A stretch of 64,000 bases of DNA from an archaeon (lineage in GTDB: Archaea > Micrarchaeota > Micrarchaeia > Anstonellales > Anstonellaceae), in assembly GCA_020056635.1 (NCBI GenBank), contig JAGVHI010000004.1, positions 2,782 to 66,781 on the forward strand, written 5' to 3'. Under the pieces are notes generated by a model. The model ran no database searches. It was given only the letters and a program-made list of their open reading frames with translations, and was not told the DNA's origin. Position 1 is the stretch's first letter. Each line of letters opens with the position of its first letter. Shown piece after piece: positions 16,748 to 52,634 of this stretch. The translations under genes were made by a program, and so were the position numbers.

Positions 16748-17503
16748 ATGAACAATGGGTTTGTTGCAATTGCCGCACTGCTGCTTTTCGGCTGCTGCTG
16801 CCAGACTATAGGCCAGCCGCCCGCGCTCACTCCTGCGCTTGCCTGCGAGAAAACCAAGGATGCGGACATGATGAACTGGTGCCTTGGAGCCGTTAATTTG
16901 GATTCGGGCTACTGCGACAAAATAGTAGACCCGGGCGGGAGCAAGGGGCAGAAATCGAACTGCTATTTTATCGTGGGAATAAGAAATAAGGACTCGGATG
17001 TGTGCCAGCATGTAACGAAACCCGAGGATATGAATGGCTGCCTTGCGATTGCAGAGGGGAATGTGAGCAGGTGCGATATACTTGAGGACGGTTACAAGGA
17101 GACATGCATAAAATATTTTGCCGCATTCACATTGAATTCGGAACCATGCGCGAACTTGTCAGGAAAGCAGAACTGCTATGAGATGGTTGCAAGGTATTCA
17201 GATGATGCAAGCACATGCGAGATGGATGCGAGCTCGAACAATTCCGGATGTTATTATAATGTGGCAGTGCATGCCATGGATTCGTCAGTTTGCGAGCAGG
17301 TGAGCGATGCGGATTCCAAGAGCACCTGCCTTGCAATCACCAAAAATGACACTTCGCTGTGCCCGAGTGGCGCAAACCATAACTCATGCCTTGGCTATGC
17401 CGCGATGTCGAACGGGGATTATGAGGGGTGCATAAGCGCTACAGGCAATGCAGACCAGTGTTATTTCTACATCGCGACAAAGGGGAAGGAGAGGTTCTTC
17501 TGA
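16748..17503 (+). CDS. Lipobox-bearing Cys-rich repeat protein (paralogue of 15899..16735)
   Basis: 'MNNGFVAIAALLLFGCCCQ' followed by the same repeat ('CQHVTKPEDMNGCLAIAEGNVSRC', 'CANLSGKQNCYEMVARYSDDASTC'). Confidence 0.75.
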   Translation: MNNGFVAIAALLLFGCCCQTIGQPPALTPALACEKTKDADMMNWCLGAVNLDSGYCDKIVDPGGSKGQKSNCYFIVGIRNKDSDVCQHVTKPEDMNGCLAIAEGNVSRCDILEDGYKETCIKYFAAFTLNSEPCANLSGKQNCYEMVARYSDDASTCEMDASSNNSGCYYNVAVHAMDSSVCEQVSDADSKSTCLAITKNDTSLCPSGANHNSCLGYAAMSNGDYEGCISATGNADQCYFYIATKGKERFF

Positions 17504-17627: not shown

Positions 17628-17630
17628 GTT

Positions 17631-17702
17631 GCCCCCATAGTTCAACGGATAGAATGCTGGCCTCCGGAGCCGGTGATCGGCGTTCGAATCGCCGTGGGGG
17701 CG
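17631..17702 (+). tRNA. tRNA-Arg (anticodon CCG)
   Basis: Folded by hand. Acceptor GCCCCCA/TGGGGGC, D stem GTTC/GAAT, anticodon stem CTGGC/GCCGG with loop CTCCGGA (CCG), 4-nt variable loop, T stem CGGCG/CGCCG with loop TTCGAAT, discriminator G. CCA is not encoded. Confidence 0.9.
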
Positions 17703-17756
17703 TTCCCATAGCCTTAAAATATACCCAATCTGAAATCCTATTCGGGAGTGAACAAG

Positions 17757-28441: not shown

Positions 28442-28466
28442 CGCACAAATAGGGCGCGCATGCTGC

Positions 28467-28479
28467 TTTTAATATTATA
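28467..28479 (-). promoter_or_regulatory. TATA-like box upstream of the 1,304-aa gene
   Basis: The minus strand reads 'tataatattaaaa', centred about 32 nt upstream of the ATG at 28441. Confidence 0.35.
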
Positions 28480-28552
28480 CTCCAGAGCTTGTGCGGGAGA
28501 ATTGGAATTGGCTGCACATTTTAATTCCCGCGCATGTGTTGCGAGCCGGCTT

Positions 28553-31500: not shown

Positions 31501-34500
31501 TTGCGGATATCAGGGTTGTGCCGCAGAGGCGGGTGGGGAAATAGATTGTCCCCTGGGATGAGGAGTCGAGCAGCATGTCCTGGGGCAGGCCGCAGCTTTC
31601 TGCCCGTACATAGTATGCTGTTGATGGTCTGAGGTCGGCGAGCAGGATGCTGGTTGCGCCGACGTGCGTGAAAGGCAGCAGGGTGACGTTCTCAAGCTCG
31701 TTCCCGTACGTGGAGAAAACTGCCGCATAGTCGCGGGTTGCAACGCCCTTGGCAGTCCCGTCGGCTGATGAGAGGCGTTCAAAGAACATTGCAGGCGAGC
31801 TGACCTGGCTGCTGTTGAACACATAGAGCACGTTTAGGAAATTGTCAAACGTGCTTGGCACTGTCGGGGATATCTCTATCCTCCACTTTCCAGCATGCTC
31901 GTCCGGCCCCAGAGCAGACGTGTTCGGGTAGTTCCTGCCGTCAACCCAGAACTCGTAGCCGCTGCCGCCTATGCGGGTTAGGTTCCAGCCGTTTGGGCCC
32001 GGAAGGACGGTCTGCACCGCAAGCCCGATGTAGTTTGATTTTATGAAAGTGGTGTTGCTGTAATTGCCGTTGAAAGCCGTGCCGTTGAAAACTTCTATGT
32101 GGCCGGGCACGTCTGAGGAGATTAGGGACCCGACTATGGTGGGCTGGTCCTGGAAGTGCATCACGAAGCTTTTCCTGAAAGACGGGTCGGTTGAGTTGAC
32201 GCGGTCAAATATCACAATGTTCCATACGTTTAGGTTGCTCCAGTTTGACGGCGGGGCATGGTATGGGGAGTACAGGTTTGCTGGCTTTCCATCCTTGAAA
32301 AACACTATTTCGCGCGTGAAATTTGAGAGCTTGGAGCGGTTGTAGGAAAGCGTCGCATCCCCGGAAATATATAAGTAATTTTCGTTTGCTTCATAGTGCG
32401 GTATTGAGCCTGCGTCGTATGCGGGGGTGTTTGTGAGCTGGTCGTACGTGAATATGCGGGGGAACATCATCTGCCCGCCATCATTCGAAACGTTGCGTAT
32501 TATTCCTGAATCGTTCCAAAGCAGGATGTTGCCCTCCCCGTCGCTGAATGACTCGTTCGGGTCATAAACTGTTATTGTGTTGTGCGCTATTGTGCGCTGG
32601 TAGTAGTTGCTCCAGTGAGGTGAGCCGTAACCTCCTGCAGGGCCGTATGCGCCGGAATCCACAACCTGGTCGCCCAAGTAATAAAGCGAGAAGCTGTTTG
32701 CGTCGCGGTGCAGGTGGCCTGAGCGCTGCTTGGGGTTGTTTGAGAAGGTGAGCCAGACCGAGTCATTGCCCCAGCTTGTGCGCGAAACAAGCGTGCCGGA
32801 ATTGCGGGAGAACCAGTCCAGTGGAAGTTCCGTGTAATTCCTCCTGTTTGCAGTCTCGTCAAACCAGAGCAGTTCCCAGAGCCGGTTGTACCAGCGGTAT
32901 GTCTGCTCAAAATTGTTCTGGTGCGTTGAGATGAACCAGTTCGCATATTCGTTGTAGGGCGAATTTCCGTAGTAGGATATTATGGAGGGGGCAGTCTGCC
33001 CAAGCGAGGGAGGGGGGCCGTAAACGTCGTAGTCGCCCCAGCTTGCCTTGTAATCGTTTGGCTTGAGCAGGTAGGCGTTGTGGTTGATTACTCGCAGCTG
33101 CAGCCAGGGGTTCTGCGCAAACCAGTCAGTGCCTGTTGCAGTTGTGAGCTTTGCGGCCATGGAAGTGTGAGTCGGCATTCCGGAGAAGCTGTAGCCTGTG
33201 CCCCAGTTCCATCCCCCATTGTCAGAGCCGGTGTAATTATAGATTCGGTAGAACTCAAGGAAGCGGGCGTATGCGATATCAGTCTGGTTGAGCACCAATT
33301 CAGCAAGCGTTGCGTTCTGTGCCTCAAGGTCAGGGTCGTACGCGAGCGCAAGCAGCGCGGTCGCCCAGCCGGAGTTCACCTCGAAAGAGTGGCTGAACAC
33401 GTTTGCGTCGCTCTCGTCCGCAAAATCACGCCAATGGTAGTAGGTTGAAAAGCGCGCGAGTGCCGTACTGAAGTTGGCGCGCTCCTCAGAGGAAAGGTTG
33501 TTGTAGAGCCAGTCGTACGCAAGCCCGGATTCCGAGCTCCATGCAGTGTAGAAATATTCCGCATCGTCCTTTCCAGAAAGCGCTGTGCTCGGATCGTCGT
33601 CCCAATAGTTCCATGTCGCATTGTACGTTGCAAGCAGCGTGTTTAGCTCGCGGAGCATGAATTTCGAGCGGTTAAGGTATGTTTCGTTGTCCGTCATCCA
33701 GTATAGGAACGTGCCTATCCGGATAAGCGAGCCCCATGAGCCGCCGTATGAAGTCGGGTAGCCCTCTCCACAGACATTTGCCTGCGAGAGGTTGGATGTG
33801 TTTAGCAGCACTGCGACCCAGTTTGCCTGGTTTGGCGAGGACATGTTGCAAGCCCAAGTGGCACGGCCGTTTGTCTGGTTCTCGTATTCTGATTTGAGCA
33901 CGTTGAAATCGTCGGTTAGGAGCGGCGTACCCAAATCGAGCTTCTGCCTGATGACTGGAATCATTTCCTGCGTCACGTAAAGGCGTGGGTGGTCCTCACG
34001 AATCGATATATTGTGCCCGGGGGACTGGAAGTTCATGATAAGGAATTTTGAGCTCACATTGCCGCATTGGATGTAGTATGTGTTGAGGTTGTTAGTCTCG
34101 TCCGACTCGTTCACCTCGAGCCTTGCATCCGCCTCAAGCACAAGCTCAAGCACCCCATCATGCATGCAGCGCAAATTCAATTCATCAATATCCGATTCGC
34201 CCGAAGCAAGCATTGGGGCATCCGCATGCGCAACCTCCTGGCCGTCAAAAGTCGCGTAAGTCGAGGATTCCGAGGCATTTGCGCTGCCCCTGTTCGTTGT
34301 GGTGAGATTGAAGGTGAAAGTCGAGTTCAGCTCGTGGGGGATATAGAATTCCTCTTCGCTTGCAGTCGCAACCAAATCTGGCATCGGGGGGAGGCAGTCC
34401 GCATAGCCATCCCAATGGTTGTTCGATTCGTTGGTCTCGTTTTGCTCGTTTGCCGCATCAACCGACAGTTGCAAATCAAGCCTTCCCTCCTGCCTGCAAG

Positions 34501-36040
34501 AAAGCAGGAGTTCGTGGCTGAGTACTGAATCCGGGGCAAGAGGCGGGATTGAAAGCTCGGTTGGGGAATCCTCGCCTATTTCAATCAGGAGGGACGACTG
34601 GGCGCTCTGCGCGGTCCCAAGGTTCGTAATTGTGAGAGGAAGGCTGAAGAGTTCGCCATATGGCTGCGGCTCGAGAAGCGAAGAGTCATCAACCAGCAGG
34701 CTCAGGTCCGGCGAGCCTGTGCATGATGGGGGGACCAAGAGTATGTTGCACACTTTGCTGCAGCATTCGGCTGGGGAGGAGCATGCGTTCCCTGCTGAGA
34801 GACATGAGTTGCACGTGCTTGTGGCAGGGTCGCAAACGCCCGAGCAGCAGTCCGCACTTGTGGAGCATGCGATTCCGTCTTCAATGCATTTTGAGCATTT
34901 GCCTTCAACACAGAGCAGGGAGGAGCAGCAGCCGTCATTGGAGGAGCAAGCGCTTCCTTCGATTGCGCAGCACGCCCGCATCGGCTTCACTCCGCTTGCG
35001 CACGAAAGCCCTTCGCAGCATGGCTCGGATCTCGAGCAGAGGCCGCCGCCCTTGGCGCACTTGCAAGGGAGCAAAATTTCGGATGAAATAGTGGAAAGCA
35101 AAGCGGGCTGCCTTGCAATCTGATTGGATGCTGCTGCAAGGTACGAAAGCTCGCTGCACTTGAATGGGAGGAGAATGTCCCTTGATTCTCCGCTTTTGAG
35201 CATTGGGACTGCCACAAGGAGCTCTTCTGTGCAATCGGCTTGCTGGCAATCCGAAGGGCTCCAAGTCAGCGTTGCGGAGGAAGGGGGGGATGGGCCAAGC
35301 CCGATATTGGTTGCTTGGAGGATGACCTGCGAATTTGGCTGCTCGCCCTGGCTTGGGGAAAGCGTGATTATCACTTCGGGGGGCTGGGAGCAGGAGAGCT
35401 TATTCCCGCTGCCTGTGCAGAGCAGCTCCCCGCAGCATTCCTGGCTGGTTTTGCAGGATTTGCCTTCGCCCCCGCACCCGCCGCAGAGCCCGTACCTGCA
35501 TTTTTGCGAATCGCAGCATTCCAAATTCGATTTGCATATCTCACCCTGCGAGTTGCACGAGCTTGGCGGGGAGAGGAGGATTTCCTCGCTTGGCGGGGTT
35601 TTTGAGGTTGGGGCGCCGGCCTGCTCAAGCGAGTAGGAGAACCGAAGGTCGATTGGAATTAGAGATGGGCCATAATCCGGAATATCTGCAGGGATTGAAA
35701 CCTTGGCTGCGGAGCCTGGCGAAAGAAATGCAGGGGAATCGAGCTTGATTTCCTGTGCTGTGCCCCCTTGCGCAGTGATTGAAACCTGCTCAAGCGAAAT
35801 CGCCTGCGTGCCGCTATTCTTAATGAGCAGAATTACGCCCCCCTGCACAAGCTTTGCGTCGGTCACAGCAAGCGGCTTTTGCGTTATCCAATAAAGTTTT
35901 GATTGCGCCTGCTTTATCGGGGAGGCCGAGGAAGCCGCCTGGTTTATGAGTGTGGCTGAGATGAGGGCAATCACCAAAACTGCGGAGAAGACAGCTAGGA
36001 ACTCGGAAGAAGACTGACCCCTCGATTCAGACCTCCCCAT
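28553..36040 (-). CDS. Giant surface protein (2,495 aa). Order: class III signal peptide, conserved N-domain, Cys modules, CARDB-like domains, heparinase II/III-like region, clan GH-A-like barrel, Cys-repeat stalk, G/S linker, C-terminal TM anchor and cytoplasmic tail.
   Basis: 'MGRSESRG|QSSSEFLAVFSAVLVIALISATLI'. 'SGHLHRDANSFSLYYLGDQVVDSGAYG...QRTIAHNTITV' is a heparinase II/III C-terminal hallmark. 'WYWAIGNEVDG' is a GH-A NE-type motif. There are three copies of 'C-[ST]-DG-x-[QL]-N-x(1,2)-E-[TA]-G-x-DCGG-x-C'. The TM segment is 'FALEVIVSLTLLSGLAAITLSSM'. Confidence 0.9.
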   Translation of the reverse strand: MGRSESRGQSSSEFLAVFSAVLVIALISATLINQAASSASPIKQAQSKLYWITQKPLAVTDAKLVQGGVILLIKNSGTQAISLEQVSITAQGGTAQEIKLDSPAFLSPGSAAKVSIPADIPDYGPSLIPIDLRFSYSLEQAGAPTSKTPPSEEILLSPPSSCNSQGEICKSNLECCDSQKCRYGLCGGCGGEGKSCKTSQECCGELLCTGSGNKLSCSQPPEVIITLSPSQGEQPNSQVILQATNIGLGPSPPSSATLTWSPSDCQQADCTEELLVAVPMLKSGESRDILLPFKCSELSYLAAASNQIARQPALLSTISSEILLPCKCAKGGGLCSRSEPCCEGLSCASGVKPMRACCAIEGSACSSNDGCCSSLLCVEGKCSKCIEDGIACSTSADCCSGVCDPATSTCNSCLSAGNACSSPAECCSKVCNILLVPPSCTGSPDLSLLVDDSSLLEPQPYGELFSLPLTITNLGTAQSAQSSLLIEIGEDSPTELSIPPLAPDSVLSHELLLSCRQEGRLDLQLSVDAANEQNETNESNNHWDGYADCLPPMPDLVATASEEEFYIPHELNSTFTFNLTTTNRGSANASESSTYATFDGQEVAHADAPMLASGESDIDELNLRCMHDGVLELVLEADARLEVNESDETNNLNTYYIQCGNVSSKFLIMNFQSPGHNISIREDHPRLYVTQEMIPVIRQKLDLGTPLLTDDFNVLKSEYENQTNGRATWACNMSSPNQANWVAVLLNTSNLSQANVCGEGYPTSYGGSWGSLIRIGTFLYWMTDNETYLNRSKFMLRELNTLLATYNATWNYWDDDPSTALSGKDDAEYFYTAWSSESGLAYDWLYNNLSSEERANFSTALARFSTYYHWRDFADESDANVFSHSFEVNSGWATALLALAYDPDLEAQNATLAELVLNQTDIAYARFLEFYRIYNYTGSDNGGWNWGTGYSFSGMPTHTSMAAKLTTATGTDWFAQNPWLQLRVINHNAYLLKPNDYKASWGDYDVYGPPPSLGQTAPSIISYYGNSPYNEYANWFISTHQNNFEQTYRWYNRLWELLWFDETANRRNYTELPLDWFSRNSGTLVSRTSWGNDSVWLTFSNNPKQRSGHLHRDANSFSLYYLGDQVVDSGAYGPAGGYGSPHWSNYYQRTIAHNTITVYDPNESFSDGEGNILLWNDSGIIRNVSNDGGQMMFPRIFTYDQLTNTPAYDAGSIPHYEANENYLYISGDATLSYNRSKLSNFTREIVFFKDGKPANLYSPYHAPPSNWSNLNVWNIVIFDRVNSTDPSFRKSFVMHFQDQPTIVGSLISSDVPGHIEVFNGTAFNGNYSNTTFIKSNYIGLAVQTVLPGPNGWNLTRIGGSGYEFWVDGRNYPNTSALGPDEHAGKWRIEISPTVPSTFDNFLNVLYVFNSSQVSSPAMFFERLSSADGTAKGVATRDYAAVFSTYGNELENVTLLPFTHVGATSILLADLRPSTAYYVRAESCGLPQDMLLDSSSQGTIYFPTRLCGTTLISASTRPPSEQAHETHSYEMLWGGKIAGQYGMRALYIGTVPQYGQVLNHSMNITFDSDSSASVSISAAGGASLCPPEPRRLAVDLDGAQQAVFDVNGSSYSYLNLTIPITAGSHTLRLRKASACTHGGHLISINSVLLSGNFSITPIASVDFSRGTKQVGLHYGYNGKDENYWTSPEILQHYRDVGTSYIRVRIHPFGAAFWPGPDPYINSYGARPESILYNTVPYNWSGSGQYNYTNLERDIRHVLLNLSATPYVNFEDSNGVGCPGEMMVTRVNHCGENYSVPTDFAQCAGYFADVTEHFYSLCTNGTWNFCGNFSDWYWAIGNEVDGKEGCSGHNHPNDWADFNQSDSRPENFINFFNTAYSAIKSRVPTAKVGGWDSAGIMADDSYPQLAQFLNRTNADFVSLHDYDNNTYYYGYVVPNWAYSKIRQFRPGNDTPLMAYSEYNFALCDTCIPPIMYVPEFNPLKGDYGAMWGASMLNWLARSNATHEMHFEGNSRGYNTPDPRYVADTSGYPGVYHDRGVKHMYGYGMWSASPLDNFSTTPMFGVRKLFSSLNPYGAQMAAAGSQDDLLEIFAVSSPHRAMTVINKRNVSVSPTITFNENIGGITKVTATGYEIIPHSGATFSPTLLPFEVGFFRLDGICPESWICSGWEEDCEGSGQLSRTCYDENSCGTASDRPTLYWACGSSSSCTDGMQNGDETGNDCGGSCITCPTCSDGVLNGQETGIDCGGSCAACPTCSDGVQNNGEAGVDCGGPCAACAPSGPGGGSGGSGSSGGGGGGRGGSGCTPNWECTLWGPCLQNRTQERLCTDLSSCGTEDGMPPLLSNCSLANQGSDPFGLITPPLGGNGSSGTIAWLFGKISEQALRILNPPISSPNLPAPLPQQQEVRIPQFALEVIVSLTLLSGLAAITLSSMRKKQEARKIKSQEEHLAEIKAYMRHSQELGFPREYTTDRLKEEGWDQHVIDEALEEIEKQQPPTQPNNE
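29225..29440 (-). repeat. Three tandem ~72-nt (24-aa) coding repeats inside the giant gene
   Basis: aa 2201-2272: 'CTDGMQNGDETGNDCGGSCITCPT / CSDGVLNGQETGIDCGGSCAACPT / CSDGVQNNGEAGVDCGGPCAACAP'. The DNA copies are visibly similar (e.g. gcatgagcctccgcaatc at about 29310 and about 29381). Confidence 0.85.
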
Positions 36041-36347: not shown

Positions 36348-36686
36348 CTATATCCAGCTTTGTTGTTTGGTTTTCCGCTTTGCCTTGCGTTTCTTGGGTT
36401 TATAGACACCGAATTTTTTTTGTGCAGCCGCAAGTCCTAATTTATTCTTTAGTCTGTTGCAGCTTCGATGCGCCCACTTAACCGTCTTCCCACCTTTCGC
36501 AAATGCCCGCACATGGTCTAACTCCGCGGCATCAAATGAAGTTATGCGACGAAAGCAAATATGACACATGTGGGAGTATAACATCCAGAGTTTCAGCTTT
36601 AATGCGGGAGATATTGCCTTGCGCTTTTTCTTCTCTTTGGGTTTAAACGGATTCCGTTTGAACGGACTATTTATTTTCATAACCAT
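36348..36686 (-). CDS. HNH endonuclease-family protein with basic N- and C-terminal tails
   Basis: 'CHICFRRITSFDAAELDHVRAFAKGGKTVKWAHRSCNRLKNK' shows a C-x2-C ... D-H ... H-x2-C-N HNH/ββα-Me signature. Confidence 0.7.
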   Translation of the reverse strand: MVMKINSPFKRNPFKPKEKKKRKAISPALKLKLWMLYSHMCHICFRRITSFDAAELDHVRAFAKGGKTVKWAHRSCNRLKNKLGLAAAQKKFGVYKPKKRKAKRKTKQQSWI

Positions 36687-37545
36687 ACCAACCACCTCGA
36701 TTTACAGTAATACTACAATTACCAAGAATACTTTCATCTAAAAATATTTCAGAACGATCCATATAAAATTCGTTGCTCGGTACGCCTTTCTGAATGTGGA
36801 AATATATTCCTTGTTTTGCTTCATTAAGTGTATCTTCATATGATAAGGTTCTTTGCTTATTGCTCTCGATTTTAGCAGTTAAACATCCTTCTTCATCACA
36901 TGCATAGATAGAAAGTTCCTTGCCAATAAATATTTGACTTCCTGCCAAGCCTGTTCCACAACGAAAGATAATTAGTGCAGTACTGCGATTTGCCCCTCTA
37001 ATATCCATGATAATACTAACTTTTTTAGTGGATACCGTATTATTCATAAATTTTGAGAATGGTACTGTTTCATTTGCAGGTTTTGCAAGTTGTTTAGATA
37101 AACTTTCTCCTTGGAAAAAGAGAAGAAAGAGAAATTCACCTATTCCTAAAATTATTAATAATATGAATATAGATGCGCATACCCAATACATACCATCCCA
37201 AATCCAACTGGGCAAGCCAGCTTTGCGTTTGCCTTCTGTTAGGCATTTAACTTCATATAGAAGGTCTGCACGCGTATTTATTCCACCTATCAGAACCGCT
37301 ATAACGACCACAAATGGAAGAAAGAAAAAAGATATGATTGTTTTTAGCCATTTAGTATCTGATTTAAATTCTAAAAATTGGAGATTGTTATCTATTTTAG
37401 CTTTGACGCGCCTAAAAACATACTCCCGCGTAAAACTGCAACTCCCATCAGAATAATGTATTATGTCCTTGAAACCATACTTACCATCCAAGACTGAGAA
37501 TTTGACTGATGATGCGTGTGGAATTTGGTCTGAACGCTCCTTCAT
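36667..37545 (-). CDS. Membrane protein of unknown function (2-3 TM plus a C-terminal soluble domain) within the islet
   Basis: 292 aa with TM segments 'TIISFFFLPFVVVIAVLIGGI' and 'MYWVCASIFILLIILGIGEFLFLLFF'. GGGGTGGAG precedes the ATG, and codon usage is AT-rich. Confidence 0.55.
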   Translation of the reverse strand: MKERSDQIPHASSVKFSVLDGKYGFKDIIHYSDGSCSFTREYVFRRVKAKIDNNLQFLEFKSDTKWLKTIISFFFLPFVVVIAVLIGGINTRADLLYEVKCLTEGKRKAGLPSWIWDGMYWVCASIFILLIILGIGEFLFLLFFQGESLSKQLAKPANETVPFSKFMNNTVSTKKVSIIMDIRGANRSTALIIFRCGTGLAGSQIFIGKELSIYACDEEGCLTAKIESNKQRTLSYEDTLNEAKQGIYFHIQKGVPSNEFYMDRSEIFLDESILGNCSITVNRGGWYGYENK

Positions 37546-43715: not shown

Positions 43716-45194
43716 TCAGGCTTTCCTGTGGTTTTGCAAAGGGTGCGCCACCTGTGCGCGCATCTTGTCAGCCTCGCTTTTTGAGTATGCGAAAGCGGCG
43801 ATGAAAAGCACCGCAAGCACCAGGAGCGAGGCCGGGTTGAAAATGAAAATCGGGAAATTGTTGTTTATCACAGTCTGGTCCGCAATCGCGCTCATGTTGA
43901 AAATCGAGTGGAGCATCACTGCTATGAAAATGCCAGGGATGATTCCGAATTTCGCAAATTGTGAGTAGTTCTTGTGGGATTTGAAATAGCCTATGAGCGC
44001 GCCTGTTGCTGCAGTGAAGCACCCGTGGCCCAGGGAATTGAAGAACGAGCGGTAGAGCATGAGCCCTACCCAGGGGGCCACCCCGTAATCGAACGGGCTT
44101 GATTTGGAGGTGAAGTAGAACCAGTTCTCGACAAAAGAGAACCCCACCCCCGCGGTGAAGCCGAAGAGGAGGCCTGTGAACATGCTGTCGTACTCGTGGT
44201 GGCCGGAAACGAAATAAACCCCCAGCCCCTTTAGCGTCTCCTCAATCAGAGGCGCAATCAGGATTGCGGTAATAGTGAGAGTGTAGCCTACAGGAATGTA
44301 GAATAGGAGGGACTGGAGCTCGATTGAGGAGTTGAGCAGGAGAGCGAAAAATGCCGAGTACATGCCCCACACGAAAAGGCCGATGAAAAAGCGGAGCGGC
44401 TTTTGGGTGTAGGATTCGGCATAGTAGACAACTATGAGATAAAAGAGCGGCATCATGAATGCGCCTGCCCCGGCAATCAGGAATACCGGGATGATGCCAG
44501 TGTCGCCCATTTTCTCAGTATAGCTTAATAGGAGAATCCATATCAGGACAATGAGGGAGATAAGCTCAACCGACCAGAAGAACGGGGTGATGAAAAGGTC
44601 CGCAATCTTTTCCTCAAACGGCCTGCCTGCCATCCTCGGGAAGAAAAGCGAGGTGTTCGTGAATTCGCCTTCAGCAAACCCGGTTTCATGGCGCTTTTGG
44701 GCGTAAGCGACCACCACCGCAAGAAGAATGAGTATGAAAATCACAATTATTGGAATGACTGAGAGCGAAACGCCTGAGAGGTATTCTGAAACCTGGTCGC
44801 GGTAGCCGGTCCAGTCCTCCACAACCTCAAACTCCTTCCCCTTGACCGAAAGCGGGGATGCGGCAATAAGGGCATAGTGCGAAATTTTTTTCATGTATCC
44901 CTCGTAGGTGAGGTGGAGCACTATTGTCGCGTTGAGCGCGCCGTAAGGCTCAAGCTCGCCTATTTCACGAAGCAACGACCACTGGCCGTCGTTTTCATAG
45001 TAGAGCTGGATTGAGTAGTTTATCGGGTCGGTGTTCTCCAAGTAGGCGTATATGGTCACATTGTCGCGCTTTTGCGTGAGCGTTTTTTCCTCAACCGAGA
45101 TTATCCCGTTTAGGGGGTAATCGAAAGGCTGCTCCGCAAGGAGAAGGAAGGTGAATGAGAGAAGCGCGAGGAGCAGTTTCCAGTTCGTTCCCAT
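43716..45194 (-). CDS. PrsW-family intramembrane protease-like protein with an N-terminal extracellular domain
   Basis: 'APLIEETLKGLGVYFV' (EExxK), 'FGFTAGVGFSFVEN' and 'HSIFN' (HxxxN) match PrsW-type signatures. ATG at 45194 avoids overlap with the upstream gene. Confidence 0.6.
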   Translation of the reverse strand: MGTNWKLLLALLSFTFLLLAEQPFDYPLNGIISVEEKTLTQKRDNVTIYAYLENTDPINYSIQLYYENDGQWSLLREIGELEPYGALNATIVLHLTYEGYMKKISHYALIAASPLSVKGKEFEVVEDWTGYRDQVSEYLSGVSLSVIPIIVIFILILLAVVVAYAQKRHETGFAEGEFTNTSLFFPRMAGRPFEEKIADLFITPFFWSVELISLIVLIWILLLSYTEKMGDTGIIPVFLIAGAGAFMMPLFYLIVVYYAESYTQKPLRFFIGLFVWGMYSAFFALLLNSSIELQSLLFYIPVGYTLTITAILIAPLIEETLKGLGVYFVSGHHEYDSMFTGLLFGFTAGVGFSFVENWFYFTSKSSPFDYGVAPWVGLMLYRSFFNSLGHGCFTAATGALIGYFKSHKNYSQFAKFGIIPGIFIAVMLHSIFNMSAIADQTVINNNFPIFIFNPASLLVLAVLFIAAFAYSKSEADKMRAQVAHPLQNHRKA

Positions 45195-45222
45195 GTTGCA
45201 CCCGATTAATGCATGCGCGGCG

Positions 45223-46896
45223 CTAGAACGGCAGCCACACATACAGGTTGATATTCTTGTTGAGCCAGGCCCATGCCTTGTACCAGAGCTCGTTGCGCCT
45301 CTTTATCACGTCTAAGAGCTCCTTGAACTGCTCTTTTTCCCCTGCCGCAAGCTTGCTCTCCGTGATTTTTATGTGCTCCTTCCCGTCCACTACCGTTTTT
45401 TCCTCCTGCTGCCCGATCTGCTTTTTCGCCTGCTCGTACCAGGGGGGAAGCGAGCTTTTCTTTTTCCGGATTGCGTTTATGAAATCGCGGGTAGTGACCT
45501 CGCGCTGCTTCCCTGTTTTGAATGCCGCACGCCACGGGATTGAGCATGCCTCATCCACTATTGCCTTTAGGTCCGAGCTTGCGTAACCTATCGTTGCGCG
45601 CGCAAGCCGCGCGTAGTTTATGCCCTTGCCCACGGGGCGGTTCTTCGCATGGAGCTTGAGTATGTCCAGCCTGCTTACGTAATCCGGCTCGCCTATGAAA
45701 ATCGCCTTCCCGAACCGCCCGGAGCGCCTTGCAGCCGGGTCCACGTCCCAGGGGGCGTTGGTCGCGCCCACCACAAGCACGTTTGCGTTGTTTGCCTCAA
45801 TCCCGTCCATCTCAAAGAGCATCTGGTTCACTGCCATCTTCATGTACTGCGTGCTCTGCGTCATCTCATCCCTTCTTCCGCCTATCCCCTCCATTTCATC
45901 GAAGAATACTATGCACGGGGAATTCTTCCTCCCAGTTTCGAATATGTTGTGCAGGTTCTTTTCCGTGTTCCCAACGTACATGTCCACCACGTCGGAAATT
46001 TTCGCGTTTATGAAGTTGGACTGGCACTCGCCTGCGGCTGATTTCATTATGAATGTTTTTCCGCACCCAGGAGGGCCGTAGAGCATGATGCCGCCGCCGC
46101 CAAGCTTGCCGTATTTGCGCGCAAGGTCGGGCTTGAGCATCGGGTAAACTATTGCCTCGCGTATCTCTTCTTTCAGCTTCTCCATCCCCGCAACATCCTT
46201 GAATGTGACTGAGGGCTTCTGCAGCAGCTTCACTGCGTTTATCCCCTGGTTCTGCTGCCCGGCTGCCATGCCAGAGCTGTCTATGTTCCCCCCGGGAGGG
46301 CCGGTGTAGCCAGAATCCTTCTTTGACTTTGCAAGCTCGCGGTGGGATTTTGCCTCCTCGAAATTCGGGTTGAGCTCGATTGCCTTGTCATAGTCCGCAA
46401 TCGCCTTGTCAAAATTGTTCATGTAATCGTAGGCAAGGCCGCGTATGTGGTATGCTTCCGAGAAGCTCGGGTTTAGCTTGATTACCTCATCGAAATCAAC
46501 TATTGCCTTTTCGTAATCCTGCAAGCAAGCGTACGCAAGCCCGCGGTTGTAATAGGCTTTGAGGTAGCGGGGGTTGAGAGCAAGAGCCTTGTCATAGTCC
46601 TTTATCGCAGCCTGGAAATCCTGCTTGCGGTAGTATGCGTCGCCCCTGTTGTTGTAAATCACAGGGTTCTTCGGGTCAAGGTCAGCGCTCTTCGCGTAAT
46701 CGGAAATCGACTTGTCGAAGTTCTTTAGGTTGTAGTAGCACAGCCCCCGGTTGAAATACGCCTCTGAGAAGTTCTGGTTGAGTATGATTGCCTTGTTGTA
46801 GGAGTCTATTGCCTTGTCGTAGCTGCCCTTCTCGTAATAGTCGTTGCCGGCGTGGTAGTAGGCGCGCGCATCCGTTGGGTTGGGCTTGTCTGGCAT
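45223..46896 (-). CDS. TPR-repeat / AAA+ ATPase fusion protein
   Basis: At least 6 TPR units (e.g. 'AYFNRGLCYYNLKNFDKSISDYAKSADLDPKN'), followed by Walker A 'LYGPPGCGKTF', Walker B 'IVFFDEME' and the second region of homology 'VVGATNAPWDVDPAARRSGRF'. Confidence 0.85.
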   Translation of the reverse strand: MPDKPNPTDARAYYHAGNDYYEKGSYDKAIDSYNKAIILNQNFSEAYFNRGLCYYNLKNFDKSISDYAKSADLDPKNPVIYNNRGDAYYRKQDFQAAIKDYDKALALNPRYLKAYYNRGLAYACLQDYEKAIVDFDEVIKLNPSFSEAYHIRGLAYDYMNNFDKAIADYDKAIELNPNFEEAKSHRELAKSKKDSGYTGPPGGNIDSSGMAAGQQNQGINAVKLLQKPSVTFKDVAGMEKLKEEIREAIVYPMLKPDLARKYGKLGGGGIMLYGPPGCGKTFIMKSAAGECQSNFINAKISDVVDMYVGNTEKNLHNIFETGRKNSPCIVFFDEMEGIGGRRDEMTQSTQYMKMAVNQMLFEMDGIEANNANVLVVGATNAPWDVDPAARRSGRFGKAIFIGEPDYVSRLDILKLHAKNRPVGKGINYARLARATIGYASSDLKAIVDEACSIPWRAAFKTGKQREVTTRDFINAIRKKKSSLPPWYEQAKKQIGQQEEKTVVDGKEHIKITESKLAAGEKEQFKELLDVIKRRNELWYKAWAWLNKNINLYVWLPF

Positions 46897-46956
46897 CGAA
46901 TCGCCGTATATGTCGGAATAAGAATGGTCGTTTTATTTAAAAAGCTGATTGGGGAG

Positions 46957-47107
46957 CTAGCAGTAGCCGCGTATGGTTTGGTTTGAGATCATTTCACAGA
47001 GCGATTTGTCGTTCCAGTTCCTTGCGAGGCCGAGGTAGCATTGGTCTTTCTCGTTCGAGGAGGGTATTTTAGCGCAATAAGAGGAATCGCGGCGTGAGAT
47101 TGCCAGA
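46957..47107 (-). pseudogene. Out-of-frame terminal repeat units of the 927-aa Cys-repeat lipoprotein gene (frameshifted 3' extension)
   Basis: The listed 124-aa ORF ends '...LAISRRDSSYCAKIPSSNEKDQCYLGLARNWNDKSLCEMISNQTIRGYC', which is the same repeat as the upstream gene. Joining at the TAA (47108-47110) by +1 gives 'KTACYSQLH-NLAISRRDSSYC', restoring the repeat register. Confidence 0.45.
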
Positions 47108-49891
47108 TTAGTGTAATTGAGAGTAACATGCTGTTTTGAAAGCACCAGCATTTTCGCAGTCTGCAGGATTGTGCGTGTATTGCATTGCAGTATTGTAATA
47201 GCAATAATCCCGTTTGCTTGAATCGTTAATTTTGCCGCAATCCGATATATTGAGCTTGAGGTTCTGGATAATTTCAAAGCATCTGGTTTTTGCGGTTGAA
47301 TCGCTGAGCCTGCTGCAGCCCGAATCGTCATCCCTTTTCTGCCCGTAGGTTATGTAGCACTCGCCACGGTATGCCTCATCGGGTATTTTGTCACAAGCTT
47401 CAAGGCTGTCCTGCACCCTCGCGATATCAAGATAGCAGCTGTAGCGCCTGAAGTACGGCACCTGGGGGGACTCCTGCAGTGACGGGCCTATAAGCGCGCA
47501 TATGGAGAAATTCTGGGCTGATGTTGCTATTTCAGCATAGCATGAGTCCTTGGTGATACCAGTTTGCATGGCGCCACAATCTGAGATTGTTTTAGGACCG
47601 CTAGGAGTTCCTCCGCTTGCTAACCACTGGCAATAGCTTTTCTGGGCAGGCCAACTTATGCCTTCGCACAAGGAAGAATTTTTAGTGAGGTTGGCCACAT
47701 CGGTAAGGCATAGGCCTTTGCCAGAGGAATCTGAAATTTTGTCGCACAGGCTTCCATCCTTGTTTGTTTTAGCCGCTAGTGAAAAGCAGAACTCCCGAGT
47801 GCTTAGAGTGGGTATTTTATTGCATATCGACAAATCGCCCGTCTGCCCGCCGAAGCGCGCATAGCACGATTCCTTTGCCCGGTTGGACTGCTGGCCGTCA
47901 CAGAATTGGATATTTGGTATTTGCGCTCTTCCAACAAGCAGAGTGGTCGAGTAGCATATGTCTTTCAAATCCCTTTGGCCAATTTTATCGCAAAGAGAAA
48001 GATTACCTGTTCCTGGCGCAACATTGGCATAACAGTTGTCGCCCGAGTACTGGTCGCTTATCCTATCACAAAGCGAAGAGTCAAGCAGCTGTGGCGCGAC
48101 CCCTGCGTAACAGCTATCTTTAGAACGAGATGTGGGGGCCTTGAGGCAGACATTAGGGTCTTTCGTTGCCTGACCCACCATAAGATAACAATTGTCCATT
48201 GTTTCGTTTTTCTTGATTAACAGGCATGTATCCGCATCGCGCCTGTTCTCAGCGACTTTTAAGAGGCAATCATCCTTCCATCCGCTGGATTGGATTTTTT
48301 CGCATGCAAGGATAACTGTGCTTTTTTCGGCTGACTTGTAATAGCACTGGTCCCTTGCCTCGCCTGCAGAGAGGCTGTCGCATGAACTGGAACCGCTTAT
48401 TGAGGAGCCTATTATCCCTCTGCATGTTTCCTGCACTGTCGCATTTGATATTTTGGAGCATATTGAAGCATCTTTTTTCTGTTGCGCCATTCTTGAATAG
48501 CAGTCGTCCTTTGACCATGTGGGCATACCGTCACAGGTGGACGAATCGACCATGTTAACCGCCCCAAATTCCCAGTAGCATTGGTTTTGCTTGCTGTCAT
48601 CGGTGATTTTGAGGCATATGGAACGGTCGTTTGAACTCTTTGCTGCATCATAGTAGCACGCATCCCTTTCATTTGCAAATCGAATTTTCTCGCAAACAGT
48701 CAAATCGGACTTGGGAGGAGATGCAGAATAGCATCCTTCTGGAGTATTTGCGCAGCCTCCAGCTTTTTCCCGCATTACATCCGATCTGCATGAGGCTTTC
48801 CAGTAATCGAGACTGATTTCTTCGCAAACAGATGCATCCTTCCTAGCCATTGCCAGTGCGTTCAAGCAATAGTTTTTGTGGTAGGATTGGTTGAGTTTTT
48901 TGCATATGGAATTATCTGCCTTGGATATTGCCACAGCAGAATAACATTTGGATTTGCCATCTTCCTCAACGGAAAATGGATAACCGTCGCATATTGTTAG
49001 ATCCCCATCCGCTACAGCAAATCCATAGCGACAGCTTGAACTATCACATCCGTCCAGCCGATTAAAGCTTGACTCTTGGGCACGGCTGAAGTATTCCTCG
49101 CATTTTTCCCTTGCCTGGCGGTTTAGGTCTGAATCTGTTGGGTAATCGTCTATGTTATTGCATATCGTAGGATCGGACTTCAGTATTGCTACGAGAGCAT
49201 AGCACTCGTCTCCAAACCCAAAGGACGTATTTTCGCAGAATGACACATCCTTTAATGAGAGGAGCGAAGCCCTGCACTGAAACCCATATTGGTAAGGAGA
49301 TTTGATTTTTTGGCATATGCTAAGGTCTTGCCTGACCGGACCAATTTCAGAATAACATTCCTCCTGCCTTAGCGTATCGCCAGTCTTAAGGCAGAGATCG
49401 GCATCTTGCTTGGCTGTAGCAATGGAATAGTAGCACTGCTCCCGCAATTGACCGGCAAGTTTATCACATAGGGAAAGATTGTTGGTCTTGAATGCCAAAT
49501 CTTTATAGCATTTTGATAAATCGTTCGCATTGCTTAACTTCTCGCATAGGCCTGTTTCAACTTTTGAAGTTCCAAGCTTGAGGTAACAATCGTCCTTGCG
49601 GGTTTGGAGCGTAATTTTATCGCAGAGATTGGAGTCCTTTTTTGCGGTGGCAACCCAAAAGTAACAGTCATCCAGAAGATCTTGCTTGTCAAGATTTGAG
49701 CAGATCCCGATGTCCTGATTTTTTATAGCCAATTCCATATAGCAGAGGTTCCGCTTTCCCTGATCTTGGGATGTTGTGCAATCCGAAGCAGATAGGGGAT
49801 TTCCTGGGCTAGGCTCTATTGGGCCAACCCCGGTGCAGCCAAAAAATAATACTGCTAGAACAACGATCGCTATTGGAATATATTTTTTCAT
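47108..49891 (-). CDS. Large lipobox-bearing Cys-rich repeat protein (about 30+ copies of the ~26-aa two-Cys repeat)
   Basis: 'MKKYIPIAIVVLAVLFFGCTG' followed by repeats such as 'CDKITLQTRKDDCYLKLGTSKVETGL / CEKLSNANDLSKCYKDLAFKTNNLSL / CDKLAGQLREQCYYSIATAKQDADL'. Confidence 0.8.
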   Translation of the reverse strand: MKKYIPIAIVVLAVLFFGCTGVGPIEPSPGNPLSASDCTTSQDQGKRNLCYMELAIKNQDIGICSNLDKQDLLDDCYFWVATAKKDSNLCDKITLQTRKDDCYLKLGTSKVETGLCEKLSNANDLSKCYKDLAFKTNNLSLCDKLAGQLREQCYYSIATAKQDADLCLKTGDTLRQEECYSEIGPVRQDLSICQKIKSPYQYGFQCRASLLSLKDVSFCENTSFGFGDECYALVAILKSDPTICNNIDDYPTDSDLNRQAREKCEEYFSRAQESSFNRLDGCDSSSCRYGFAVADGDLTICDGYPFSVEEDGKSKCYSAVAISKADNSICKKLNQSYHKNYCLNALAMARKDASVCEEISLDYWKASCRSDVMREKAGGCANTPEGCYSASPPKSDLTVCEKIRFANERDACYYDAAKSSNDRSICLKITDDSKQNQCYWEFGAVNMVDSSTCDGMPTWSKDDCYSRMAQQKKDASICSKISNATVQETCRGIIGSSISGSSSCDSLSAGEARDQCYYKSAEKSTVILACEKIQSSGWKDDCLLKVAENRRDADTCLLIKKNETMDNCYLMVGQATKDPNVCLKAPTSRSKDSCYAGVAPQLLDSSLCDRISDQYSGDNCYANVAPGTGNLSLCDKIGQRDLKDICYSTTLLVGRAQIPNIQFCDGQQSNRAKESCYARFGGQTGDLSICNKIPTLSTREFCFSLAAKTNKDGSLCDKISDSSGKGLCLTDVANLTKNSSLCEGISWPAQKSYCQWLASGGTPSGPKTISDCGAMQTGITKDSCYAEIATSAQNFSICALIGPSLQESPQVPYFRRYSCYLDIARVQDSLEACDKIPDEAYRGECYITYGQKRDDDSGCSRLSDSTAKTRCFEIIQNLKLNISDCGKINDSSKRDYCYYNTAMQYTHNPADCENAGAFKTACYSQLH

Positions 49892-49897
49892 GGAGCA

Positions 49898-50572
49898 TCA
49901 ACCCCTGAAAGGATGCAGAATATAGCGGGTGCATTGATCCTTAAAGCTCGAATCTGATAGCTTGTAGCAAATTGATGGATCATTTAGCTTGCGGGCAAGT
50001 CCGTAATAGCATTCATCGCGAGATCCAGGATAGTAGTTGCTAATCTTGCCGCAATAGAATGTGTTGTTTTGCACAGTTGCCATCTTGCTATAGCAATCAT
50101 CGGCCCAGTTCTGATCAGGCATCCCATCACATATTGAACTATCATTCAAATGCCCTGCCACCGTTCCATAACAGTTTAGTTTGGAGTTCGCTGGACAGAG
50201 AGATAAGTCTTTCTTTGCAGCAGCATATTCTCCGTAGCACCAAGTTGACCAATATTCATCAGGTATTTTGCTGCATAGTGGCTGGTTATCTGTGGCGATG
50301 GCAACACCAAAATAGCAAAATGCCTTGAAATCGATTGCCTCGATTTTTTCGCATAGGGAGCTATCTTTCATTTTTGGTCCGACTTTGGCATAACACTGGT
50401 CATCCAATAGATATTCGTTATTTGGCAATTTTTCACAATCTGCTACCGTCTCCATAGGCTGCGGCGTCCATCCGCCAACATTGCCGATGCAGCCAAAAAA
50501 CAGAAATACATTGAATAAGACAGCTGCAAAAATCAATAAAGAGGAGTTTTTGACCCAATTCCCGTTATGCAC
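49898..50572 (-). CDS. Lipobox-bearing Cys-rich repeat protein (short paralogue, tandem with the 927-aa gene)
   Basis: 'LLIFAAVLFNVFLFFGCIG' and repeats 'CEKIEAIDFKAFCYFGVAIATDNQPLC' and 'CDGMPDQNWADDCYSKMATVQNNTFYC'. Confidence 0.75.
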   Translation of the reverse strand: MHNGNWVKNSSLLIFAAVLFNVFLFFGCIGNVGGWTPQPMETVADCEKLPNNEYLLDDQCYAKVGPKMKDSSLCEKIEAIDFKAFCYFGVAIATDNQPLCSKIPDEYWSTWCYGEYAAAKKDLSLCPANSKLNCYGTVAGHLNDSSICDGMPDQNWADDCYSKMATVQNNTFYCGKISNYYPGSRDECYYGLARKLNDPSICYKLSDSSFKDQCTRYILHPFRG

Positions 50573-50604
50573 ACCTTATCAGCGAGAGTTATGAATAAAT
50601 AGCT

Positions 50605-51387
50605 TTACTTTTTCTTGAAAACAGCCGGCTTTCTCGCTTCGGGTGGCATTGCAGCCGCTTTTGCTGCAGGTTTTGCGCTTTCCTTTGCTTCGGGTTTGAG
50701 TGTGAGAGCTTGGTTTTTTGCATCCGCTTTTTTCCCATCCGCCATGGGCTTTATTTCTTTTATTTCGGGAATGTACGCCTTCACTGATGCAAGAAGCGAC
50801 TGCTCCATGATCGCCTGGTCAGGGGTTTTGTCGCGGTTCAAAAACCGGATTTCAAGCGAGCTTCCGGAAATTTTGTATTCCGCCTCAAGGAACGCGGAAT
50901 CGAGCAGCGCCTGCACCTTCTTCCCAGTATCCGAAATTACTTCCTCAAGCTTAATCGAGTACACCACGTTCTCGCCTGCAAGAGGGTGGTTCAAATCAAC
51001 GGTCACGCGCCCGCCTGCAACAGATTTTACCTTTGCAGCCAGCCGGTTGTCAAGCGCCACCATCATCCCAGGGGAGGGGTTCACCCCCTGGGAGTGGAAC
51101 TTTGAAAGCGGGATTACGCGCACGAGCTCCGGGTTGCGCTCCCCGAACGCCTTGTTGGGGTGAAAAAGGAAGCTCTCCTGCTTTCCAGGGGAAAGCGTGC
51201 GGACTGCCTCCTCAATCCCGCGTATCATCTGCCCTAAGCCCAGCGCCACCACTTTCTGCCCGTACCTGCCCTTCAGTGCGTATATGCCTGCCTGCTTTGC
51301 AAGGGGCTCGTCCGTGGTCTCGAATACCTCCCCTGTCGAGGCAAGCTTGCCTGTGTATGTGATTTTTACAAAATCGCCGTTCTTCAT
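50605..51387 (-). CDS. FKBP-type peptidyl-prolyl isomerase (SlyD-like, with an insert-in-flap domain) and a K/A-rich C-terminal tail
   Basis: 'MKNGDFVKITYTGKL..GEVFETT', 'LGLGQMIRGIEEAV' and 'GGRVTVDLNHPLAGENVVYSIKLEEV' are archaeal FKBP/SlyD patterns. ATG at 51387. Confidence 0.8.
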   Translation of the reverse strand: MKNGDFVKITYTGKLASTGEVFETTDEPLAKQAGIYALKGRYGQKVVALGLGQMIRGIEEAVRTLSPGKQESFLFHPNKAFGERNPELVRVIPLSKFHSQGVNPSPGMMVALDNRLAAKVKSVAGGRVTVDLNHPLAGENVVYSIKLEEVISDTGKKVQALLDSAFLEAEYKISGSSLEIRFLNRDKTPDQAIMEQSLLASVKAYIPEIKEIKPMADGKKADAKNQALTLKPEAKESAKPAAKAAAMPPEARKPAVFKKK

Positions 51388-51455
51388 CAAAACCGCCCTT
51401 GCGCGGGCAAACCATTTCTGCAATATTATTAATCTTGCCCGAGCAAGCTACTTTT

Positions 51456-52634
51456 ATGGACAAATCATTATTAATCAAATTGGCAGTAGTCGGAATAATT
51501 CTCGCGTTCGTGATTCAGACTTTTGCATTCGGCATGCTCAACAACCCGAATTCCGGGATAGGAGGGGGCGGGAACGCGATAAGCAATGTGGCATTCCAGG
51601 GGACCGTGGTAGTGCCTGCAACAGTGACCTCGTACAAGCCGGTGATTATTTTGCAGGGAACCAGGGGGCAGGTTGCAGAGGCGGTAAAGCCGCTTGTTGC
51701 GTCCGGTGCCGTCATTTACACAGGAGAGCCGGACGAGGAGAACATGACCCTTGTGAACCTAGCAGGGGATGCGGATGTGAGGGCGGTTGCAAAGAGCCTG
51801 GAAGGCGGGAATGTGACCGTTTATACCACTGCAGTAATCAGCCTGCCATCCAGGTTCAACATCACCACCCCGGAAGGGCAGCGGGAGATAGAAGGGACCA
51901 CCTTCGACCTTGGGACACCAGAAATATTGGGGGAGAATGAAACGCTGCAGATGAGCGTCTACCTCTACGTGCAGAACGGGAAAATAGTGCAGCTCCAGAA
52001 TCCGGTTTTCATGCAGGAGAAAAAGGCGCTTTTGCTTGAGGGGACCGTGTCAGGGGGGGTTGGGGCTAGCTATGCGGTTCTCATACCATTTGAGCAGAGG
52101 AGGATTGATAAGGAAAAGGCAAAGGCGATTTTCAGCGCTGAAAATTATTCCATTGAGATAAAGGAGATATCTTACATAGCGTTCGACCCGCCGCTATCGC
52201 AGGAGCAGCTCTCGAAATTGAATTTCCCGTATGTCACGTATTCCCAGCCTGCAAGCGTCTCGATCAGCCCAACATTTACTGACGGCGCGAAGCTCAGGTC
52301 GGACTTTGAGCTTGCCGGAGTGAATGCCACGCCCCCGTATTCGTTTATCAGAGTGGCGGGGAATGCAAACGAGGATTTGGAAAATGAGAGCGCGAAAATT
52401 GCAGGGCTTGGGAAGCTTGTTGCAAACGAATCGTCCTTGCAGATTGCATACCGCGCAGAGCTATCGCTTCCGGATTATATGGAGCTGGATGGGAAGAGGA
52501 TTACTGGCTTTCCGCAAAAGGTGAATGCCATTGTGGATTCGAAACCTAATATTGGGGATAAGATTTCTGTGACAATAACAGCGTGGGTTTCCGGAAGCAG
52601 GATTGTGAAAATAGAAACGATTGGAACAGGCTAG
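51456..52634 (+). CDS. N-terminally membrane-anchored protein, unknown function
   Basis: 'MDKSLLIKLAVVGIILAFVIQTFAF' is a signal anchor, followed by a soluble region of about 370 aa. No family recognised. Confidence 0.55.
   Translation: MDKSLLIKLAVVGIILAFVIQTFAFGMLNNPNSGIGGGGNAISNVAFQGTVVVPATVTSYKPVIILQGTRGQVAEAVKPLVASGAVIYTGEPDEENMTLVNLAGDADVRAVAKSLEGGNVTVYTTAVISLPSRFNITTPEGQREIEGTTFDLGTPEILGENETLQMSVYLYVQNGKIVQLQNPVFMQEKKALLLEGTVSGGVGASYAVLIPFEQRRIDKEKAKAIFSAENYSIEIKEISYIAFDPPLSQEQLSKLNFPYVTYSQPASVSISPTFTDGAKLRSDFELAGVNATPPYSFIRVAGNANEDLENESAKIAGLGKLVANESSLQIAYRAELSLPDYMELDGKRITGFPQKVNAIVDSKPNIGDKISVTITAWVSGSRIVKIETIGTG

Follow-up and report, generated by a model that had tools for sequence, protein, structure and literature searches.

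Two adjacent minus-strand genes for cysteine (Cys)-rich repeat proteins of 224 and 927 amino acids (aa), located on contig JAGVHI010000004.1 of a Micrarchaeota genome (GenBank assembly GCA_020056635.1), raised the questions of where this gene pair came from, whether its long repeat array is subject to recent expansion, and what its products might do. The stretch of 64,000 nucleotides (nt) in which the pair lies is referred to here as the window. We favor, at a probability of roughly 0.6, the reading that the pair is an accessory two-gene cassette, acquired by this lineage and encoding a lipid-anchored, disulfide-stapled surface scaffold composed of old repeats.

Analysis of the open reading frames (ORFs) and N-termini bore out the layout described in an earlier note on this DNA, namely two tandem minus-strand genes separated by 6 nt, each encoding an FFGC motif. 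The 224-aa protein gene (49898–50572) has a GTG start and the 927-aa protein gene (47108–49891) lies downstream of it; the small gap between them suggested co-transcription, and the two genes would probably share one transcript. Both proteins progress from a short polar start through a hydrophobic segment to FFGC, and from there through a Pro/Gly/Ser-rich linker to the repeats, of which the short protein has 7 two-Cys units and the long one 34. Their N-termini read MKKYIPIAIVVLAVLFFGC and ...LLIFAAVLFNVFLFFGC, in each case a hydrophobic stretch followed by FFGC. On the minus strand, signal peptide plus lipobox-like motif span 50489–50572 in the 224-aa protein (FLFFGC, aa 1–28, ending at Cys28, with G-C as in the family consensus) and 49835–49891 in the 927-aa protein (VLFFGC, aa 1–19, ending at Cys19). 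The charged n-region and hydrophobic h-region of a signal peptide were recognizable in both (MKK followed by YIPIAIVVLAVLFF, and ...K followed by NSSLLIFAAVLFNVFLFF), and AlphaFold modeled this region of the pair as a helix (residues 5–17 and 10–27). The 32-nt spacer past the stop codon of the FKBP gene (50573–50604, minus strand) holds an A/T-rich box, GCTATTTATTCAT (50589–50602), approximately 25 nt 5′ of the GTG. Its sequence makes this box a candidate TATA box of the archaeal type, suited to a leaderless transcript, and the cassette would then probably have its own promoter.

The repeat was characterized with a hidden Markov model (HMM) built from 32 units of the two proteins, which were extracted by pattern and then aligned. 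The unit comprises 26 residues with the consensus C-x-K-I-x(6-8)-[KR]-D-x-C-Y-x3-A-x4-[DN]-x-S-[LI]. The model matched the 927-aa protein at E = 3e-150, with 30 domains (approximately 25 of them at an independent E value, i-E, below 0.01), and the 224-aa protein at E = 1e-45. After the lipobox Cys, spacings of 12 and 14 residues alternate nearly perfectly in both proteins, so that the description of the long protein as an almost uninterrupted array of a unit of about 26 aa held, with five or six degenerate or insert-bearing units. The 69 Cys of the 927-aa protein correspond to Cys19 plus 34 pairs, and the 15 Cys of the 224-aa protein to Cys28 plus 7 pairs. Both proteins are acidic (isoelectric point 5.2), and the 927-aa protein carries 11 N-x-S/T sequons, several of which fall on the [DN]-x-S position of the unit.

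The gene pair differs in composition from its surroundings. The G+C fraction (GC) of the 927-aa and 224-aa genes was 0.464 and 0.431, compared to 0.520 for the whole window, 0.536 for the flanking AAA gene and 0.538 for the flanking FKBP gene. It was also lower than at a second locus of the same repeat superfamily on the plus strand (locus 1), where distant paralogues of 281 aa (15890–16735; LVGC lipobox) and 254 aa (16739–17503; LFGC lipobox) have GC values of 0.487 and 0.506. The low-GC stretch coincides with the extent of the two genes, with its minimum toward their 5′ side. Because the amino-acid content of the pair is unusual, the expected GC at third codon positions (GC3) was obtained by redrawing synonymous codons according to codon usage in the window itself, with amino-acid content fixed. 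Observed and expected GC3 were 0.486 and 0.646 for the 927-aa gene (z = −10.8) and 0.444 and 0.656 for the 224-aa gene (z = −7.1). The corresponding values were 0.725 and 0.629 for the AAA gene (z = 4.8), 0.631 and 0.624 for the FKBP gene (z = 0.2), 0.546 and 0.656 for the 281-aa gene of locus 1 (z = −4.2), and 0.605 and 0.657 for its 254-aa gene (z = −1.9). Among the 44 genes of the window, only that at 36667–37545 was a stronger GC3 outlier (z = −14). Several codons that are rare in the window were raised in the cassette, including TGT (25% vs. 5%), CTA (18% vs. 6%), TTA (12% vs. 3%), GGT (17% vs. 5%), and CGT (10% vs. 3%). The lower GC noticed by eye in the earlier note was hence confirmed against both flanking genes and locus 1, and both GC and codon usage departed from the window.

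Gene order in related genomes points in the same direction. The gene for a protein with TPR and AAA ATPase domains (45223–46896, minus strand), which flanks the cassette downstream, served as synteny anchor; its orthologues, 57–80% identical, defined a comparison set of 160 loci (80 Micrarchaeota genomes and 80 metagenome contigs). These orthologues place the window in a Micrarchaeota (DPANN) archaeon that lacks a close sequenced relative. In nine related genomes with sufficient flank the order is PurH> NMNAT> <FKBP 411aa> AAA> PrsW>, and the gene for a 411-aa membrane protein abuts the AAA gene directly, with no gene between (genomes named for this order: L002–L005, L007, L008, L012, and L076; AAA 72–76% identical). 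In the window, taken in this orientation, the order is PurH> NMNAT> <411aa FKBP> 224> 927> AAA> PrsW>. The FKBP gene (50605–51423, minus strand) and the divergent 411-aa gene (51399–52634, plus strand) are therefore flipped relative to the nine genomes, and the cassette is located at the inversion breakpoint. No inverted repeats were detectable at the breakpoints of this inversion. The longest-ORF starts of these two genes overlap (51399–51423), and their true starts probably lie further in (MKNGDF... and MDKSLL...).

The closest relative, L001 (AAA 80% identical), has the ancestral orientation of the FKBP/411-aa pair and carries two unrelated giant Cys-rich proteins on the opposite strand at the same junction, which indicates that the site upstream of the AAA gene takes variable surface-protein cargo. 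Across the 160 AAA-anchored loci, which make up 1.98 of the 2.04 Mb searched, the unit HMM identified no member of the repeat family; it did pick up the three homologue loci L081–L083, included as controls, as well as locus 1. The 927-aa protein, when used to scan metagenomes, retrieved no orthologue, and scans of genomes and metagenomes anchored on the AAA gene yielded no cassette and no relative above 76–80% AAA identity. Together with the codon usage, the absence of the cassette from the syntenic site in relatives supports an insertion at this place in this lineage only, with a foreign or lineage-specific origin as far as sequence comparison can tell, and so lends weight to the more recent or foreign origin proposed in the earlier note. 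The cassette would have been acquired after this Micrarchaeota lineage split from all sampled relatives, and would have landed in the variable junction just upstream of the conserved TPR-AAA gene, where the FKBP/411-aa pair would also have been inverted. Contigs bearing members of the repeat family have a GC content of 30–57%, which makes a lower-GC donor plausible.

Several observations weigh against acquisition. Of the features of a horizontally acquired islet, atypical codon usage and absence from the orthologous site were found, but hallmarks of mobility were not: the insertion is accompanied by no mobility gene, tRNA, or flanking direct or inverted repeat. Scans for inverted repeats, terminators, tRNAs, and Rfam families returned no feature at the junctions, the direct repeats within 46900–50650 were short motif-level matches only, and the genes flanking the cassette are housekeeping genes by Pfam. 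The dinucleotide signature of the cassette is no outlier (delta* 50–62 vs. a window mean of 54), which places the compositional signal at synonymous positions and not in the signature as a whole. Additionally, the searches brought up neither a donor nor a close homologue (outside matches are at best approximately 30–42% identical), and since the closest genomes are only 76–80% identical in the AAA protein, "recent" is to be read as a relative term.

The ordinary dinucleotide signature and the missing mobility signature would fit a vertically inherited, ancestral cassette that was lost in relatives and owes its low GC3 to weak expression or relaxed codon selection, as would the lowish GC3 of locus 1, which belongs to the same family. 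However, the Cys codons of locus 1 are host-like (TGC 95%, TGT 5% as in the window), and the shift toward TGT seen in the cassette is missing there. Vertical descent would furthermore require independent losses, or a single early loss, in the nine genomes in which the 411-aa gene stands beside the AAA gene, as well as absence from all 160 AAA-anchored loci, and the inversion breakpoint coincides with the cassette. We therefore consider an ancestral origin unlikely. A still poorer explanation is that a lower-GC fragment of another organism was joined into the contig during assembly or binning. The GC step matches the gene boundaries and the cassette occurs in no close relative, as such an artefact would predict, but the sequence on either side is host-like and keeps its synteny with relatives, two chimeric joins placed exactly in short spacers (32 nt and 60–210 nt) are improbable, and a distant paralogous locus lies within the same window. 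An artefact of this kind was judged extremely improbable.

If the cassette was acquired by this lineage, the next question is whether its array was built after arrival. A long array of same-length units, tandem genes very unequal in length, and a frameshift falling within the array could be signs of a contingency locus, in which the array grows and shrinks by recombination or slippage and the unit number varies between strains. At the DNA level, Tandem Repeats Finder reported no arrays on the locus at a score of at least 30, and blastn of the locus against itself at word size 7 gave no matches. The longest shared DNA words were motif-level matches of 15–37 nt with 68–94% identity, as recovered by a direct-repeat finder. 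Units were on average 27% identical to one another, the three fixed positions included, with a maximum of 52%. Adjacent units were no more alike than distant ones: identity did not drop with distance, being 0.26 at lag 1 and 0.28–0.30 at lags 3–4. Contingency loci and variable-number tandem repeats are characterized by DNA repeats so nearly identical that they can slip or recombine, and no such repeats were found. Since diverged units without DNA-level repeats offer no substrate for slippage or unequal recombination, a strain-variable repeat number is unlikely to arise by that route, and a contingency locus appears very improbable. The sequence comparison indicates that the array is ancient, with no sign of recent duplication or of a rapid copy-number mechanism. 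The repeat expansion that the earlier note had suggested was not upheld, as either a recent or a continuing process, and the comparison of individual units gave no indication of recent intragenic duplication. The array would already have been long when it arrived, rather than having been built here, and would since have lost about its last two units to a frameshift.

This frameshift lies at the 3′ end of the 927-aa gene. The ORF ends at a TAA (47108–47110), beyond which the repeat stays readable in the +1 frame until a TAG is reached at 46957. The out-of-frame continuation (46957–47112, minus strand; ...TNLAISRRDSSYCAKIPSSNEKDQCYLGLARNWNDKSLCEMISNQTIRGYC*) encodes approximately two more units with 4 Cys, and the unit HMM recognized in it one full unit (i-E 9e-6) and partial units. 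As read from the sequence, the two frames are separated at GCATGTTACTCTCAATTACACTAATCTG (47105–47130, minus strand) by a 1-nt indel or by a 10-nt insertion, TACTCTCAAT. A single frame can be restored there by removal of one base, which gives a slightly long unit, or of the 10 bases TACTCTCAAT, which gives a perfect CYTNLAISRRDSSYC unit, and the frame-restored protein would have approximately 976 aa and 36 Cys pairs. The boundaries 46957–50572 proposed earlier for the locus were right at the right end; the left end requires correction, because position 46957 belongs to the shifted frame and the 927-aa ORF stops at 47108. The frameshift may be a real mutation or an assembly error. A programmed +1 frameshift at CAC-UAA was considered and rejected as unlikely, as no slippery re-pairing and no supporting evidence were found.

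The frameshift could signal the onset of gene decay, and this counts against a functional cassette. If the 927-aa gene were a decaying pseudogene and the cassette non-functional, the loss of approximately 50 residues (two units) at the 3′ end and the atypical codon usage would both be explained. On the other hand, none of the 34 Cys pairs is lost from the open frame of 927 codons, which also preserves the unit consensus, the truncated product closes on a complete Cys pair, the 224-aa gene upstream is intact, and the shift itself may be an assembly error. Decay of the gene to a non-functional state was consequently regarded as improbable.

Structure prediction supports an elongated helical architecture. 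AlphaFold2 modeled the 224-aa protein, from an alignment of 39 sequences, as all-alpha with a mean predicted local distance difference test score (pLDDT) of 89.9 and a predicted template modeling score (pTM) of 0.75; each modeled unit consists of a helix of 4–6 residues with the first Cys, followed by a helix of 13–15 residues with C-Y. The model of the 927-aa protein (pLDDT 78.6, pTM 0.60) is likewise all-alpha, with short and long helices alternating, and has low-confidence breaks at residues 274–294, 434–456, 564–588, 655–683, and 803–808. Judging from this model, the protein probably consists of several solenoid segments. The tandem helix-turn-helix units in an elongated array that define alpha-solenoids are present in both models. 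Foldseek searches against PDB and BFVD returned generic solenoids, none of them significant as a specific relative, the top matches being consensus TPR, designed helical repeat proteins, CRM1, and SKI3 (the best E was 0.15 with the 224-aa model; the 927-aa model reached 1.3e-3 at a template modeling (TM) score of 0.11).

From their N-terminal sequences, the mature proteins are most likely tethered to the outer face of the membrane through a lipid on the FFGC Cys. The Cys that follow the lipobox Cys are even in number, as full disulfide pairing plus one lipidated Cys would predict, and we infer that the paired Cys form disulfides that staple the solenoid. Metal binding by the Cys was rejected, as disulfides are a better match than CxxC-type sites for the 12/14 spacing, for a location outside the cytoplasm, and for the even parity. 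The exported proteins would be anchored by the lipidated Cys, and the remainder of each would form a rod or superhelix of 26-residue units with one short and one long helix and two Cys each. Conserved positions (C, K-I, D-x-C-Y, A, and D-x-S-L) would be structural and variable positions would form a binding surface, a pattern typical of binding scaffolds, from which we infer an extracellular binding or spacer scaffold. Since the archaeon is host-dependent, such a sturdy scaffold could serve, for example, in contact with a host cell or the envelope. Three observations count against this assignment. The canonical archaeal lipobox is [LVI][ASTVI][GAS]C (PMC12462473), and although the G at −1 and the C at +1 of the window motif fit, Phe-Phe at −3/−2 falls outside it. 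Disulfide pairing was not legible in the predicted models, and the gene neighborhoods of homologues share no conserved neighbor and gave no functional hint.

The homologues were retrieved by an exhaustive HMMER search with the 224-aa protein against 1.84 billion cluster representatives (clusters at 50% identity), as a word-indexed search recovered almost nothing. At E ≤ 1e-3, 2,822 cluster representatives were found, 733 of them at E ≤ 1e-10. The best match was the neighboring 927-aa protein (2e-59), and identity to outside homologues reached approximately 42% at most. A signal peptide or membrane anchor preceded the repeats in every homologue inspected, and 65 of 152 homologues had a lipobox-like motif (LSGC, FSGC, LFGC, FFGC, and others). 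The number of Cys after the lipobox Cys was even in 59 of these 65, as well as in both window proteins. Across the family, G-C closes the N-terminal hydrophobic segment and Cys spacings peak at 14 and 12. Among the contigs that carry homologues, some are archaeal and have genes for RFC, fibrillarin, and TFIIE in the vicinity, and others are without assignable origin. In one metagenomic homologue of 609 aa (P0002), a DUF2330 domain and a membrane segment precede 7 Cys-repeat units that make up the C-terminal half, an architecture which indicates that the repeat also serves as a module joined to other extracytoplasmic domains.

When the four window proteins were scanned against Pfam and NCBIfam, no family emerged for the repeat (Pfam, including Sel1 and TPR, at E ≤ 0.1), and a Pfam scan of 94 homologues (E ≤ 0.001) gave no repeat model, with DUF2330 and DUF5667 as sporadic N-terminal extras only. 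Searches of PDB by sequence, with the single protein and with a profile, and searches of phage and plasmid collections with the repeat proteins gave no match. An exact-sequence query with the 927-aa product returned no record. The source records name the homologues only as "hypothetical protein", and the literature searched contained no description of the 26-residue two-Cys repeat. The cassette proteins represent an uncatalogued type of alpha-solenoid repeat protein, archaeal and probably lipobox-anchored, with a 26-residue two-Cys unit, and their family has no Pfam, NCBIfam, or PDB relative. At locus 1, the two genes are 33% identical to each other and 23–28% identical to the cassette. A tRNA-Arg(CCG) gene, the only tRNA or Rfam match in the window, lies approximately 130 nt downstream (17630–17703). 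Genes for tRNAs are common integration sites, and by its sequence context locus 1 may also lie in an islet.

Like other DPANN archaea, Micrarchaeota live attached to the cells of a host, and to our knowledge the surface molecules that they employ are very poorly characterized. It is conceivable, although we regard it as doubtful, that the unit defines a large undescribed family of disulfide-stapled alpha-solenoid surface proteins characteristic of ultra-small, host-dependent prokaryotes, which is horizontally exchanged and forms lipid-anchored host-attachment or envelope-spanning rods. If so, the cassette would be a recently acquired host-interaction module. The locus alone reveals no new mechanism. 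It does provide a clean example of an accessory surface-protein cassette in a variable junction of an otherwise syntenic region, and a way into a large repeat family that lacks annotation and has a predicted compact, disulfide-rich helical rod. Lipidation of AliA-type lipoproteins has been reported for Euryarchaeota and DPANN (PMC12462473), and the two proteins are candidate substrates for this newly found archaeal pathway in DPANN, with an unusual Phe-rich lipobox.

Other parts of the window were also noteworthy. The TPR-AAA ATPase gene and the gene of a PrsW-family intramembrane protease (43716–46896) adjoin in most closer Micrarchaeota loci and, going by this arrangement, may be a conserved functional pair. 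The strongest compositional outlier of the window (36348–37545) comprises a 292-aa ORF (GC 0.35, GC3 0.25, z = −14) and an overlapping basic ORF of 115 aa with an HNH-like ending (HRSCNRLK), neither with a Pfam match; it looks like a separate small foreign insert beside the giant gene for a 2,495-aa protein. At 24527–36040 and 118–1335 lie genes for Cys-rich secreted proteins, two of them giants (1,304 and 2,495 aa) and a third of 405 aa; their N-termini resemble archaeal pilin-type signal peptides and they contain CxxC-rich modules. Similar giants (1,343 and 1,040 aa) are those at the junction upstream of the AAA gene in L001 (2698–9907). A type IV pilus or archaellum-like assembly cluster on the minus strand (5091–10434) contains genes for two T2SSF-type membrane proteins, a 608-aa protein without a Pfam match, and a T2SSE-type ATPase. 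At 2508–4613, GC is lower (0.45–0.46) and two ORFs of 139 and 545 aa have no Pfam match; the 545-aa protein contains many Cys/His-rich motifs (CxxC, HHxxxC).

Comparison with known systems places the cassette proteins apart from the described solenoid families. With TPR, HEAT, and designed helical repeats they share stacked helix-turn-helix units forming an elongated superhelix. Membership in the TPR family was rejected, as there was no Pfam TPR match at E ≤ 0.1 and the unit has 26 rather than 34 residues; in contrast to TPR, the window proteins carry a conserved pair of Cys in each unit and are located outside the cytoplasm. An hhalign comparison with the TPR domain of the neighboring AAA protein gave a probability of 0.1%. 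Like archaeal AliA/AliB lipoproteins, described in Haloferax volcanii (PMC12462473), they combine a signal peptide, a small residue plus Cys, and a flexible linker, but their motif is F-F-G-C, with Phe at −3/−2 instead of [LVI][ASTVI]. With locus 1 and the metagenomic family they have in common the 12/14 Cys spacing, the CY...A....D...C consensus, the N-terminal lipobox, and the arrangement as a tandem pair, whereas locus 1 differs in its host-like Cys codons and nearly host-like GC3. In Hcp structures, paired Cys staple helices by disulfides. Assignment to the Sel1-like/Hcp family (PF08238) was rejected, as neither the four window proteins nor the 94 homologues had a Pfam match to it, and Foldseek matches to Sel1/HCP-like models were insignificant (E about 0.5, TM about 0.2). 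Sel1-like repeat proteins such as the Helicobacter Hcp proteins nevertheless resemble the window proteins in being exported alpha/alpha solenoids with paired Cys in each repeat that are thought to act as binding scaffolds. Their unit has approximately 36–44 residues, compared to the 26 residues in one short and one long helix found here, and the window proteins are distinguished from them by being archaeal and lipobox-anchored.

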